Source of the DNA: Escherichia coli
Lineage (GTDB): Bacteria > Pseudomonadota > Gammaproteobacteria > Enterobacterales > Enterobacteriaceae
Length of the DNA: 64,000 bases
Assembly (NCBI RefSeq): GCF_017348835.2
Contig: NZ_CP071375.1
Direction: 5' to 3' (one strand)
Positions 40,783 through 45,102 of this stretch are shown here, one piece after another (the stretch's first letter is position 1; each line of letters opens with the position of its first letter). The position numbers and the translations under genes are program-made. The notes below the pieces were generated by a model. That model was given only the letters and a program-made list of their open reading frames with translations, did no database searches and was not told the origin of the DNA.

Positions 40783-40859
<77 letters not shown>

Positions 40860-40916
40860 TTTAGTCCCGGCGCTTGAGCTGCGGTGGTAGTAATACCGCG
40901 TAACAAGATTTGTAGT

Positions 40917-40993
40917 GGTGGCTATAGCTCAGTTGGTAGAGCCCTGGATTGTGATTCCAGTTGTCGTGGGTTCGAATCCCATTAGCCACCCCA
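40917..40993 (+). tRNA. hisR: tRNA-His (anticodon GUG, extra 5-prime G)
   Basis: ggtggctatagctcagttggtagagccctggattGTGattcc...ccacccca. Confidence 0.93.
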
Positions 40994-41013
40994 TTATTAG
41001 AAGTTGTGACAAT

Positions 41014-41100
41014 GCGAAGGTGGCGGAATTGGTAGACGCGCTAGCTTCAGGTGTTAGTGTCCTTACGGACGTGGGGGTTCAAGTCCCCCCCCTCGCACCA
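41014..41100 (+). tRNA. leuT: tRNA-Leu (anticodon CAG)
   Basis: gcgaaggtggcggaattggtagacgcgctagcttCAGgtg... long variable arm, 87 nt. Confidence 0.93.
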
Positions 41101-41142
41101 CGACTTTAAAGAATTGAACTAAAAATTCAAAAAGCAGTATTT

Positions 41143-41219
41143 CGGCGAGTAGCGCAGCTTGGTAGCGCAACTGGTTTGGGACCAGTGGGTCGGAGGTTCG
41201 AATCCTCTCTCGCCGACCA
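41143..41219 (+). tRNA. proM: tRNA-Pro (anticodon UGG)
   Basis: cggcgagtagcgcagcttggtagcgcaactggtttGGGacc...cgccgacca. Confidence 0.93.
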
Positions 41220-41225
41220 ATTTTG

Positions 41226-41254
41226 AACCCCGCTTCGGCGGGGTTTTTTGTTTT
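41226..41254 (+). terminator. Rho-independent terminator of the tRNA operon
   Basis: aaccccgc-ttcg-gcggggtt then tttttgtttt. Confidence 0.7.
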
Positions 41255-41365
41255 CTGTGCATTTCGTCACCCTCCCTTCGCAATAAACGCCCGTAATAAC
41301 TCATTGCCCCACGGTATGATTTCGCCCTTAACGTATTGAAGGATGACTTCAGGCAAGGAGCGACC

Positions 41366-42601
41366 ATGCTGCAACAGGTTCCAACGCGTGCTTTTCATGT
41401 GATGGCGAAACCGAGCGGTTCCGATTGTAATCTGAACTGTGACTACTGTTTTTATCTCGAAAAACAATCCCTTTACCGCGAAAAGCCAGTCACGCATATG
41501 GACGATGACACGCTGGAAGCGTATGTCCGTCACTATATCGCTGCCAGCGAACTGCAAAACGAAGTGGCTTTTACCTGGCAGGGCGGCGAACCAACGCTAC
41601 TCGGGCTGGAGTTTTACCGCCGTGCCGTAAAGTTACAGGCGAAATACGGTGCTGGCAGGAAGATAAGTAACAGCTTCCAGACTAACGGCGTGCTGCTCGA
41701 TGATGAATGGTGTGCATTTCTGGCAGAAAATCATTTTCTTGTTGGGTTATCGCTGGATGGTCCGGCTGAGATCCACAATCAATATCGCGTGACCAAAGGC
41801 GGCAGACCCACGCATAAACTGGTGATGCGTGCCCTGACGCTGCTGCAAAAACATCATGTCGACTATAACGTGCTGGTCTGCGTTAATCGCACCAGCGCGC
41901 AGCAACCGTTGCAGGTATATGATTTTTTGTGCGATGCGGGAGTGGAATTCATCCAGTTTATTCCGGTGGTCGAGCGCCTGGCTGATGAAACGGCTGCCCG
42001 CGAAGGACTGAAATTGCATGCGCCTGGTGATATTCAGGGGGAACTGACGGAATGGTCGGTGCGCCCCGAGGAGTTCGGTGAATTTCTGGTGGCGATATTC
42101 GACCACTGGATTAAACGCGACGTCGGCAAGATTTTCGTGATGAATATCGAATGGGCGTTTGCCAATTTTGTCGGTGCGCCGGGTGCGGTTTGCCATCATC
42201 AGCCAACCTGTGGGCGCTCGGTGATTGTTGAGCACAACGGCGACGTTTACGCCTGCGATCACTATGTTTATCCGCAATATCGACTGGGGAATATGCACCA
42301 GCAAACAATTGCAGAAATGGTAGATTCTCCGCAGCAGCAGACTTTTGGTGAAGATAAATTTAAGCAGTTACCGGCGCAGTGTCGCAGTTGTAACGTGTTA
42401 AAAGCATGTTGGGGAGGCTGCCCGAAACACCGCTTCATGCTCGATGCTAGCGGTAAACCGGGGCTGAATTATTTGTGTGCCGGATATCAGCGTTATTTCC
42501 GCCATCTACCGCCATATCTTAAAGCTATGGCTGATTTGCTGGCGCACGGTCGTCCGGCCAGCGACATTATGCATGCGCATTTGCTGGTGGTGAGTAAGTA
42601 A
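41366..42601 (+). CDS. aslB: Anaerobic sulfatase-maturating enzyme homolog (radical SAM)
   Basis: Start trimmed to MLQQVPTRAFHVMAKPSGSDCNLNCDYCFY (CxxxCxxC radical SAM motif). Confidence 0.88.
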   Translation: MLQQVPTRAFHVMAKPSGSDCNLNCDYCFYLEKQSLYREKPVTHMDDDTLEAYVRHYIAASELQNEVAFTWQGGEPTLLGLEFYRRAVKLQAKYGAGRKISNSFQTNGVLLDDEWCAFLAENHFLVGLSLDGPAEIHNQYRVTKGGRPTHKLVMRALTLLQKHHVDYNVLVCVNRTSAQQPLQVYDFLCDAGVEFIQFIPVVERLADETAAREGLKLHAPGDIQGELTEWSVRPEEFGEFLVAIFDHWIKRDVGKIFVMNIEWAFANFVGAPGAVCHHQPTCGRSVIVEHNGDVYACDHYVYPQYRLGNMHQQTIAEMVDSPQQQTFGEDKFKQLPAQCRSCNVLKACWGGCPKHRFMLDASGKPGLNYLCAGYQRYFRHLPPYLKAMADLLAHGRPASDIMHAHLLVVSK

Positions 42602-42635
42602 AAAAGCGGCCATTTTGTGGCCGCCTGCGGTTGAT

Positions 42636-42742
<107 letters not shown>

Positions 42743-42768
42743 AGGCAGATCTCAGCGATAGCGCCGAC

Positions 42769-44424
42769 TTAATCAGATTTAATCTGCGCGCGTGGTGGAT
42801 ATTTTTTCAGGATCTCCATATACGCGTGCATTTCGGTCTGTAGCGGTACACCCATCGGAATATGGCGCACGCCGATAGAGTCGCTCTCCTGCGGATCGGT
42901 GTAGAGGTTAAACACCGACGATCCGGCTGTTTGCATTACTGTGCCGGTGAATCCACCCTGATATCCGCTCTGAGTATAAGCGTAAGGTTGCTGAATCAGG
43001 ACGTGATACTTGAATTCATCCATACGCACAGCAGCGAGTTTACCGTTGAGGAAGTAGTGCTCGGCCTTACGGTTAGACTGACCATTTGTTCCCAGGAAGA
43101 AAGATGTCTGGTCCACACCATCGATAAAGGTGGTTTTCGGCACTAAATTCGCGACTTTCGCGCCAGGATGCCCCGCCAGATCCAGTGCTGTTGGGAAGAG
43201 ATCTGCCAGATCAACAATGCCGTCAGATTTACGCGGTTGGATCATGCCTTTCCAGTACACGAAAGTTGGAACGCGAACGCCGCCTTCCCAGGTAGACCCT
43301 TTCGCACCACGGAACGGTGTGCGACCGTGCGGAGGCACTTCGGCTTCCGGACCGTTATCGGAGGTAAAGACAATAAGCGTGTTATCCAACTGACCGTTTT
43401 TCTCCAGCGTTTTGTAGAGATTAGCGAACACATCGTTCATCTCCACCATGCAGTCGCCATACGAGGTGCGTGCCGGAGAACTTCCCGCATATTTGGCGTT
43501 CGGGTAGTTATCGAAGTGACAGCCGCGCGTACCGTAATATAAGAAGAAAGGTTTATCGCTCTTCGCCATCTTGTCGAGGAACTTAACGCCATATTCCATC
43601 CAGCGTTGATCCAGGTCTTCCATATATTTCGGCGTAATGTCAGCAATGGCCTCCTGTTCGCCGCCGCGTACAGCATGAACATCATCTTTGCTAAATGGTA
43701 ATTGCTTGATGTATTCAGAACGGTCCGGACTCAGGGCGACTTCCGGGTTGACGTGAACATCGCGCCATTCGGTGTACATATCAGACACCGAGTTAAAGCC
43801 ACGGAAATCATCAAAGCCAACGTTCTGCGGCTGCGACTCTTTGTTTTCCCCCATATGCCATTTCCCGATAGCCTGGGTGACGTAGCCCTGATCGTGCAGC
43901 AACTGCGGCAGCGTGGTTAACCCTTGCAGCCCGCCCGGTTGCCCGTACATTGGCGGCATCAGAATGCCGTGGTGGATGGAGTATTGTCCGGTGAGAATGG
44001 TGGCGCGGGTTGGGGAAGAGCTTGGTTGAGAATACGCCGAAGTTAAAATCAGCCCCTGGCTGGCAACGGCGTCGATATCTGGTGTAGGGTTACCCACCGC
44101 CACGCCGCCACCGTTAAAACCGACGTCCATCCAGCCCACATCGTCCAGCAAGAAAACAACCACATTCGGTTTCTTACCGGTTTTTTTCTCAAGTTCTGCC
44201 AGCTTCTGCTGGGTTTCTTTATCCTGCGCCGGATGCTGCATTACTGGCATCATATTGTCGGCAATAGTGGTCGCCGGTTTAACCAGATACTGGTTTGGGT
44301 GATCGTATCCGGCAAAGCCTTTGCGTGCGGTGGCAGTTGACGGGGTATCTGCTGCGCTGGCCATGAGAGGAAGAGCGGCGGCGACAGCAACAACAAGACG
44401 TTTGGGTGAAAACGAAAATTCCAT
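42769..44424 (-). CDS. aslA: Arylsulfatase
   Basis: 551-aa ORF with signal peptide and sulfatase fold. Confidence 0.88.
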
Positions 44425-44848
44425 GCAAAATGCTCCGGTTTCATGTCATCAAAATGATGACGTAATTAAGCATTGATAATTGAGATCCCTCTCCCTGACA
44501 GGATGATTACATAAATAATAGTGACAAAAATAAATTATTTATTTATCCAGAAAATGAATTGGAAAATCAGGAGAGCGTTTCCAATCCTACCTCTGGCGCA
44601 GTTGATATGTAAGGCAGGTTTATTATATCGCGTTGATTATTGATGCTGTTTTTAGTTTTAACGGCAATTAATATATGCGTTATTAATTGAATGAATTTTA
44701 TCATTCATAATAAGTATGTGTAGGATCAAGCTCAGGTTAAATATTCACTCAGGAAGTTATTACTCAGGAAGCAAAGAGGATTACAGAATTATCTCATAAC
44801 AAGTGTTAAGGGATGTTATTTCCCGATTCTCTGTGGCATAATAAACGA

Positions 44849-45055
44849 GTAGATGCTCATTCCATCTCTTATGTTCGCCTTAGTGCCTCATAAACTCCGG
44901 AATGACGCAGAGCCGTTTACGGTGCTTATCGTCCACTGACAGATGTCGCTTATGCCTCATCAGACACCATGGACACAACGTTGAGTGAAGCACCCACTTG
45001 TTGTCATACAGACCTGTTTTAACGCCTGCTCCGTAATAAGAGCAGGCGTTTTTTT
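44849..45055 (+). ncRNA. glmZ: GlmZ small RNA (activator of glmS translation)
   Basis: gtagatgctcattccatctcttatgttcgcc ... ends in terminator gcctgctccgtaataagagcaggcgttttttt; 207 nt; matches GlmZ as I recall it and lies between aslA and hemY. Confidence 0.75.
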
Positions 45056-45102
45056 ATGTATCAGGAAGGCCCCGGAGGTGCTTGCCTCCGGGTGAGAAGG
45101 AA

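Follow-up and report, generated by a model that had tools for sequence, protein, structure and literature searches.

The small RNA GlmZ controls the synthesis of GlmS, a key enzyme of cell-envelope synthesis, and in Escherichia coli its gene stands back to back with aslA, which has been linked to invasion by E. coli K1. This arrangement raises the question of what the long stretch of AT-rich DNA between the two genes does, and which of them it serves. We addressed this question in 64 kb of E. coli DNA (that is, the whole stretch analysed, hereafter the window), in which the spacer occupies positions 44425–44848 (424 bp, 33% G+C, no strand assigned), given that the aslA open reading frame extends to 44424 and GlmZ starts at 44849. 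The original prediction of a 424-bp AT-rich divergent region upstream of glmZ is confirmed, as the G+C content of the spacer is 0.33 compared with a mean of 0.52 for the window, and AT-richness this high is reached in just 0.5% of the 424-bp segments scanned across the 64 kb. The surrounding gene order (aslB–aslA–glmZ–hemYXD, with hemY next after glmZ on the minus strand) is identical to that of K-12 MG1655; the K-12 spacer (NC_000913.3, 3986008..3986431; RefSeq annotation) has the same length of 424 bp and differs from that of the window at just two positions, 44581 and 44678, neither of which lies in the glmZ promoter. The locus is single-copy; of 5426 complete E. coli genomes, 5406 contain the spacer, with identities that fall into two main bands (at least 99% and 90–95%).

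For comparison, a scan anchored on hemY, with each species represented by a single genome, yielded 80 enterobacterial loci. These include five non-coli Escherichia lineages (E. albertii, E. whittamii and three more, of which two bear the label 'E. coli' in their records), whose spacers are 423–428 bp long and 75–81% identical to that of the window, with AslA proteins that are 96.5–98.7% identical and glmZ genes that are 98–99% identical. The identity at fourfold-degenerate sites (0.55–0.78 in aslA, 0.65–0.73 in hemY and about 0.68 overall) served as a neutral yardstick for the identity values of individual segments, which are listed together with the coordinates of all features in Table 1.

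Table 1. Features of the aslA–glmZ spacer and its two neighbouring genes, in window coordinates
Feature	Position	Strand	Description
aslA	42769..44424	-	Open reading frame; arylsulfatase AslA, 551 aa; divergent neighbour of glmZ
aslA-proximal leader	44425..44495	-	Most conserved part of the spacer; identity 0.86–0.99 across Escherichia
Palindrome window	44525–44544	none	Escherichia identity 0.84
Perfect A/T-only palindrome	44528..44544	none	AAATAAAT-T-ATTTATTT; 8+1+8 inverted repeat
Candidate -10 TAGGAT and predicted leader start	44565–44594	-	Escherichia identity 0.88
Candidate aslA promoter	44584..44613	-	-35 CTTACA 44613->44608, 18-nt spacer, -10 TAGGAT 44589->44584
Candidate aslA -35	44605–44624	-	Escherichia identity 0.96
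Conserved block upstream of the candidate aslA promoter	44632..44654	-	aslA-sense TAAAAACAGCATCAATAATCAAC; identity 0.94 across Escherichia
Hypervariable segment	44695..44782	none	Escherichia identity 0.46–0.67, at or below neutral level; 0.46–0.61 over 44705–44784
glmZ-proximal block, -66..-1	44783..44848	+	Positional alignment with other Enterobacteriaceae glmZ promoter regions
glmZ σ70 promoter	44813..44842	+	-35 ATGTTA 44813–44818, 15-nt spacer, TGg 44834–44836, -10 CATAAT 44837–44842
glmZ	44849..45055	+	Small RNA gene; Rfam RF00083, 218 bits, full length; equals K-12 glmZ b4456

The glmZ promoter and the block around it

At the glmZ end, the hexamer CATAAT, which ends 6 nt upstream of the GlmZ 5′ end at 44849, had been proposed as a -10 element, and this is borne out: it is the -10 of the published σ70 promoter (PMC3045617). 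Positions 44813–44842 exactly match the mutationally verified Escherichia/Klebsiella-type glmZ promoter ATGTTA-N15-tggCATAAT (PMC3045617), and compared with the same locus in K-12, motif and start site are identical and the promoter is without any difference. Göpel et al. (Nucleic Acids Res 2011; PMC3045617) found that the activity of glmZ'-lacZ stayed intact in 5′ deletions from -424 to -40 and, in K-12, was abolished by truncation to -20 or by mutation of the -35 or -10 element. In the same study, deletion of glrR or rpoN had no effect on E. coli glmZ, GlrR did not bind a glmZ fragment spanning -424..+32 in electrophoretic mobility shift assays (EMSA), and no σ54, GlrR or IHF motifs were seen upstream of Escherichia glmZ; the authors concluded that one constitutive σ70 promoter drives the E. 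coli gene (PMC3045617). The further proposal that the long AT-rich part of the spacer also controls glmZ is contradicted by this dispensability of DNA upstream of -40 and by the negative GlrR assay (PMC3045617). A natural variant, E. coli PSS-16, in which an IS1 element abuts -50 and the rest of the spacer is deleted together with the 5′ half of aslA, has kept both the glmZ promoter and glmZ intact despite this IS1-linked deletion, and is consistent with a short, self-sufficient glmZ promoter. The AT-rich remainder of the spacer, beyond its last 40 bp, most likely belongs to the poorly expressed aslA.

Our own scans agree with the published absence of σ54-type elements. In a search for the -24/-12 element TGGCAC-N5-TTGCA, TGGCA was absent from the -24 position of glmZ both in the window and in all five of the other Escherichia species, and it is present there in 42 other enterobacterial loci. 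GlrR sites (TGTCN10GACA) number zero in the 424 bp at up to two mismatches, with 2.4 expected by chance, the nearest look-alike being TGTC-N11-GACG at 44444–44462, with a spacing of 11 instead of 10. A simple promoter scan of the spacer returned three matches, compared with 1.9 expected, and missed the real glmZ promoter; its match TTGAGA-16-GATGAT, which is the 'glmZ promoter' guessed in a genomic SELEX paper (PMC3946193), was rejected as not being the real one.

The glmZ-proximal block can nevertheless be compared with σ54-type relatives position by position. The alignment of -110..+10 of glmZ from 23 species is nearly gapless, and Escherichia, Klebsiella/Raoultella, Pseudocitrobacter and σ54-type Citrobacter have a pattern in common at equal distances (that is, CAGAAnnnTC..CAAT.., at about -66..-50 relative to the glmZ start, followed by a GATGywA -35 and TGTGnnATAAT). 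On the basis of this cross-genus alignment, the 66 bp beside glmZ look like an ancestral-type promoter region that, in Escherichia, would be without its former -24 element. Whereas the Escherichia/Klebsiella-type and σ54-type upstream regions were described as dissimilar (PMC3045617), the alignment here suggests positional homology over about -66..-1. The promoters of the σ54/GlrR(QseF)/IHF type (glmY and glmZ of Yersinia and Salmonella, and E. coli glmY) have the start site, TGTGnnATAAT and a GATGyAA-like -35 at distances like those in the window; unlike them, the spacer has no -24 TGGCAC, no TGTCN10GACA activator sites (three of which, at 90–250 bp upstream, would be expected of the σ54/GlrR type) and no IHF consensus site. 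Unlike σ54-type glmY/glmZ, moreover, E. coli glmZ is not bound by GlrR and does not respond to rpoN or glrR mutations (PMC3045617).

Identity to the five other Escherichia is 0.88–0.93 over 44785–44824 and 0.77–0.78 over 44815–44844, such that glmZ-proximal conservation reaches past the minimal -40 promoter. Within the block, -66..-41 has been kept even though reporter activity does not depend on it. A preprint from 2024 predicted an AraC motif within -100..+10 of glmZ, and a plasmid reporter of this motif showed an effect in casamino-acid medium, the direction of which was inconsistent in the follow-up (PMC11230228). Considering this preprint together with the conservation of -66..-41, some regulation of glmZ may still be exerted from just upstream of -40. 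An inverted repeat around the glmZ -35 was also considered as a conserved element and rejected, given a mean arm length of 4.5 compared with 3.9 under the null; its arms are ATAACA/TGTTAT in Escherichia, and Klebsiella and Raoultella have other arms.

The aslA leader, its candidate promoter and H-NS

The aslA-proximal leader, the most conserved part of the spacer, carries a ribosome-binding site (GGAG, 44436->44433) and an inverted repeat (GTCATCA-AAA-TGATGAC, 44445–44461) that has undergone a symmetric double change in E. albertii and is broken in the divergent (93–94%) E. coli haplotype (for example, KGu016). The leader segment closest to the aslA ATG is also conserved in Pseudocitrobacter, and the upstream regions of aslA in E. 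coli and Pseudocitrobacter show overall homology (local score 67, z = 8.8), preserved best in the surroundings of the ribosome-binding site, TAAAAAC(A/C)GCA..AATAATCAA, and CTTACA and TAGGAT 18 nt apart.

The original prediction placed regulatory sites for both genes in the divergent region, and for aslA this holds in so far as the region must contain the aslA promoter and is bound by RNA polymerase in vitro: in the genomic SELEX of Shimada et al., aslA/glmZ is one of 177 divergent spacers to which RpoD holoenzyme bound (PMC3946193). For glmZ, such a role of the long AT-rich part is not supported, as described above. From the conservation pattern we infer that CTTACA-18-TAGGAT is the best candidate for the aslA promoter, albeit a weak one. 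Among nine σ70-like candidates on the aslA strand, it is the only one in which both hexamers are 100% conserved in the five other Escherichia and the intervening spacer is at neutral divergence (0.66), and Pseudocitrobacter faecalis has CTTACA and TAGGAT at the identical 18-nt spacing. It has 8 of 12 consensus matches, which is below the promoter-scan threshold, and predicts transcription of aslA from near 44577 with a leader of about 150 nt; no experimental aslA transcription start was found in the published data sets searched. Other candidates are AAAACA-19-TATAAT (44652->44622) and a promoter guessed computationally, TTAACA-18-TGTAAT (44809->44780; PMC3946193). Support from Kluyvera-type aslA upstream regions was discarded; MAFFT placed their TTTACA-16-TATAAG at the position of the candidate, yet in pairwise comparison these regions show no similarity to E. 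coli (z about 0). The conserved block further upstream (44632–44654), which is recognizable in Pseudocitrobacter as TAAAAACCGCAATAATAATCAAAG, might serve as an UP element or bind an activator.

Two tracts of 22–27% G+C (44485–44574 and 44635–44724) flank an island of 45% G+C that holds the candidate aslA promoter. AT-rich promoter regions that are silenced by H-NS from flanking nucleation tracts include those of proU, bgl and hdeAB, and the aslA–glmZ spacer resembles this type in being AT-rich and divergent, with a weak candidate promoter between two very AT-rich tracts; it differs in that its matches to the high-affinity H-NS motif are not enriched over composition-matched shuffles. For this motif, the nucleation motif TCGATAAATT that Lang et al. 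reportedly described in 2007, the spacer has one site at up to two mismatches (44540–44549, minus strand) compared with 1.5 expected in such shuffles. In parallel SELEX in vitro, the aslA/glmZ spacer was marked 'HNS' (that is, it includes an H-NS-binding site; PMC3946193), and mutation of hns derepresses the adjacent gene aslB 13-fold (PMC2984483). Taken together, the layout of the AT-rich tracts, the SELEX mark and the derepression of aslB suggest that aslA is silenced by H-NS from the flanking tracts, and a part for the AT-rich spacer in the control of aslA, most likely through H-NS, thus appears plausible. Scans of the spacer with the CRP and Fis consensus sequences found nothing above chance.

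The A/T palindrome and competing readings of the spacer

The A/T element at about 44529–44546 that had been described as near-palindromic is real and in fact perfect, its true position being shifted by 1–2 nt (Table 1). Relative to the candidate aslA promoter it is on the downstream side, within the AT-richest tract beside aslA (44485–44574, G+C 0.22–0.27). Of 2,000 dinucleotide-preserving shuffles, 5.1% contained a perfect repeat whose inverted arms were 8 nt or longer and no more than 3 nt apart, so the palindrome alone is borderline. Counting every perfect inverted repeat with arms of 7 nt or longer, the spacer contains four distinct ones (a tally of five in the inverted-repeat test, in which the palindrome is scored twice, compared with 0.6 expected; p about 0.007), and the other three are E. 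coli-specific. Conservation across related genomes, proposed originally as the touchstone for these elements, separates them: the -35 and CATAAT of the glmZ promoter are invariant in six E. coli and five other Escherichia species, whereas the palindrome, which does not vary among the six E. coli sampled and is also complete in E. albertii and E. whittamii, has uncompensated changes in three of the five other Escherichia lineages, and in the homologous spacer of Pseudocitrobacter its region has been deleted or has diverged.

The A/T tracts had also been likened to IHF sites, and a full version of this idea would have them, the palindrome above all, act as IHF-type architectural sites that control aslA and glmZ, as at the σ54 promoters of glmY and, in other species, of glmZ. 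E. coli glmY does require IHF, and a Yersinia glmZ promoter fragment is bound by it (PMC3045617); within the spacer, one-mismatch matches to the IHF consensus number four compared with 1.7 expected (p = 0.09), one of which (TATCAATGCTTAA, 44466–44478, minus strand) lies in the best-conserved block. However, the perfect consensus WATCAANNNNTTR does not occur in the 424-bp spacer, and the palindrome, which matches on both strands, lacks the C of WATCAA in each match as its single mismatch. Given also that no such motifs were found upstream of Escherichia glmZ and that DNA beyond -40 is dispensable (PMC3045617), that the σ54 promoter that IHF would serve is absent, and that Pseudocitrobacter lacks the palindrome and three Escherichia lineages carry uncompensated changes in it, we consider this role for IHF quite improbable, and the palindrome is best read as an AT-rich substrate for H-NS rather than a specific site for IHF or another regulator. 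A related proposal, in which the aslA-proximal block is a decayed GlrR ABS2 plus IHF1 module (TGTC-N11-GACG at 44444–44462, followed by TAATTAAGCATTGATAAT), draws on a local score of 35 between 44429–44477 and the glmZ upstream region of Salmonella enterica arizonae (ABS2 TGTCTCTATTTGGTGACG with an adjacent IHF-consensus site), a score that is comparable to that of the E. coli–Klebsiella promoter alignment, with equal orientation; some σ54-type species (for example, those at our loci L021, L059, L075 and L077) match the same place. Yet across 42 σ54-type species, the mean best score against the block is 20.4, compared with 18.1 ± 1.0 under the null, equal or higher scores are reached with other 80-bp tiles of the spacer, and S. 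diarizonae reaches only 19; the half-site spacing is 11 rather than 10, and GlrR did not shift the fragment -424..+32 in EMSA (PMC3045617). The block adjoins the aslA start codon and is kept in Pseudocitrobacter, for which an aslA leader is the simpler explanation, and the vestigial module at 44429–44477, having failed the 42-species and other-tile controls, was rejected as very unlikely.

It could instead be argued that, apart from the two core promoters, the spacer has no sequence-specific function at all, with a composition set by origin and mutation bias and a palindrome that arose by chance. The borderline shuffle frequency of the palindrome (5.1%) and the E. coli-specific nature of the other three inverted repeats fit this view, as do the hypervariable segment at 44695–44782, which evolves at or below the neutral level and contains a polymorphic 15-bp duplication, the natural isolate in which an IS1-mediated deletion has removed most of the spacer, and the use of the spacer in laboratories as a cassette insertion site, as in a recent LacI study (PMC13069688). 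Against it stand several blocks that are 0.9–1.0 identical across species in which fourfold sites are only 0.55–0.78 identical, some of them recognizable in another genus, the retention of the spacer in 5406 of 5426 genomes, and the reported binding of H-NS and RNA polymerase in vitro (PMC3946193); on this balance, a purely neutral spacer is unlikely. The duplication itself (ACTCAGGAAGTTATT then ACTCAGGAAGcaaag, 44747–44776) is E. coli-specific and present as a single copy in strain SWHEFF_69, and the direct repeat ACTCAGGAAG x2 was rejected as a pair of binding sites, being this polymorphic tandem duplication in the fastest-evolving segment. Likewise rejected as a regulator site was the inverted repeat ATTGGAAA-N12-TTTCCAAT (44558–44585), which is perfect only through a T->C change at 44581 that is absent from the eight other Escherichia sequences aligned and that at least O157:H7 TR01 has as well. 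It is scarcely credible that the spacer encodes a small protein or small RNA that has escaped annotation: two short open reading frames exist (44521..44643, plus strand, 40 aa, starting with GTG; and 44567..44704, minus strand, 45 aa), but both are unconserved in other Escherichia (start codons lost, premature stops and a 2-nt indel). An Rfam search of the spacer gave no match even at E <= 10, the predicted fold of the aslA leader is no better than that of shuffles (z = -1.39), the portion of the Term-seq data available for aslA and glmZ places no 3′ end inside the spacer, and a sequence scan for terminator-like sites found none apart from the glmZ terminator. The hidden-gene proposal was rejected on the lack of conservation, of an Rfam match and of a stable fold.

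A probable composite origin of the spacer

The gene neighbourhoods of relatives suggest how the two ends may have come together. In Salmonella, Klebsiella and Superficieibacter, the argX–hisR–leuT–proM tRNA cluster runs directly into the glmZ upstream region; the proM–glmZ spacer measures 306 bp in Salmonella, where it has GlrR sites, and 176 bp in K. pneumoniae, where it has none. Citrobacter and Enterobacter have the same thrP-like permease gene just beyond the glmZ upstream region, which points to the same proM–glmZ layout in these genera. In Escherichia, Pseudocitrobacter, Kluyvera and one further genus, aslB–aslA lies between proM and glmZ, and all of these aslA-adjacent lineages are without the σ54 promoter and GlrR sites and have spacers of 30–35% G+C.

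On this basis, we favour, with a probability of about 0.65, the reading that the spacer is composite, combining the constitutive promoter of glmZ at one end with an aslA leader and promoter that were brought in with aslBA and are silenced by H-NS from the AT-rich tracts. The glmZ end is a 40-bp constitutive σ70 promoter that needs nothing further upstream, as the published experiments show, and that, judging from its alignment with the overlapping σ54/σ70 promoters of other enterobacteria, has lost the -24 TGGCAC and all GlrR enhancer sites. The remaining ~355–380 bp would represent the leader and promoter region of aslA, which may have arrived when the aslB–aslA pair came to lie between proM and glmZ. 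H-NS would nucleate on the tracts of 22–27% G+C and keep aslA silent under laboratory conditions, and the A/T palindrome would form part of the AT-rich tract downstream of the candidate aslA promoter.

A bolder scenario is possible but doubtful. The placement of aslB–aslA may have cut Escherichia glmZ off from its GlrR/σ54 enhancer and left the σ70 half of the promoter, with the same outcome reached independently or by transfer in Kluyvera and Pseudocitrobacter; the spacer, bound by H-NS, might then buffer a silent gene from a constitutive small RNA promoter, with -66..-41 as a condition-specific regulator site.

In summary, the finding is an ordinary one, as the glmZ part was already known and published, and the minor additions to it are those that we infer. 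Little is at stake for glmZ, given that its promoter in E. coli is already experimentally constitutive and independent of the AT-rich DNA upstream. For aslA, the composite reading offers small additions, namely a testable candidate promoter and a layout in which this promoter is flanked by putative H-NS tracts. For Escherichia glmZ, it offers a likely evolutionary reason for the loss of GlrR/σ54 control, in that aslBA sits at the place of the former enhancer.

Inverted repeats in the aslA–glmZ spacer

The features located in and beside the 424-bp aslA–glmZ spacer are listed below by window position. The inverted repeat at 44445–44461, which could act as a leader hairpin or as a dimer site, is preserved in Escherichia albertii through a symmetric double change (GACATCA...TGATGTC) and is broken at two positions in the divergent (93–94%) haplotype of E. 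coli seen, for instance, in strain KGu016. A further perfect inverted repeat, ATTGGAAA-N12-TTTCCAAT, arises in the window from a T-to-C change at 44581, where eight other aligned Escherichia sequences have T and the O157:H7 strain TR01 also has C; this case shows that chance readily creates such repeats in the spacer. The sole other stretch of the window that matches the spacer in AT-richness spans approximately 61700–62700 (lowest 424-bp G+C, 0.31 at 61893) and, going by the offset from K-12 coordinates, should lie near yigG.

Features in and beside the aslA–glmZ spacer
Feature	Window position	Description
Inverted repeat GTCATCA-AAA-TGATGAC	44445-44461	20 nt upstream of the aslA start codon
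15-bp tandem duplication ACTCAGGAAGTTATT / ACTCAGGAAGcaaag	44747-44776	
Block ACAGAATTATCTCATAACAAGTGTTAAGGG	44783-44812	-66 to -37 of glmZ; conservation ~0.9 across Escherichia
glmZ terminator hairpin	45021-45050	53 nt from the hemY stop (region 45021-45102)

Conserved and variable sequence around glmZ

The glmZ-proximal block is conserved despite the published dispensability of this region in deletions (PMC3045617). It overlaps the aslA promoter that was guessed computationally in a genomic SELEX study of the RpoD holoenzyme (TTAACA-18-TGTAAT; PMC3946193), and in Klebsiella and Raoultella it is resembled by CCAGAATAGTCCCAATTCC, found at the same distance from glmZ. The tandem duplication, which other Escherichia species lack, falls where the spacer evolves fastest and is polymorphic within E. 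coli, with a single copy in one sampled strain, SWHEFF_69 (L004). At the other end of glmZ, the distance between the terminator and the hemY stop, together with a minus-strand 3′ end in a published Term-seq data set (K-12 position 3986647, approximately window 45064; classed there as hemY-primary and antisense to glmZ), shows that the hemY and glmZ transcripts are convergent and have nearby ends.

Natural variants of the spacer in genomes labelled E. coli

Spacer identity to the window is at least 90% in all but 2 of 5,423 matching complete E. coli genomes, and about 20 of 5,426 genomes fall short of 80% coverage. In strain PSS-16 (L003; NZ_AP027713.1, 1500–3050), IS1A adjoins position -50 of glmZ; the element has removed the 5′ half of aslA together with the remainder of the spacer, leaving glmZ and its core promoter intact. 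Two genomes titled Escherichia coli, SCPM-O-B-8794 (L008) and E69 (L013), have spacers only 75–78% identical to that of the window and are probably cryptic-clade Escherichia species.

Placement of aslB-aslA and the glmZ enhancer

The placement of aslB-aslA (window region 40783–44848) was compared across loci L014, L061, L057, L031, L038 and L012. Only in Escherichia, Pseudocitrobacter, Kluyvera and one further genus does the pair separate the tRNA gene proM from glmZ, and every lineage with this arrangement is missing the GlrR/sigma54 enhancer of glmZ. Both aslBA and the enhancer are lacking from Klebsiella and Raoultella, whose proM–glmZ spacer is 176 bp; in Salmonella, the enhancer is present and the spacer is 306 bp.
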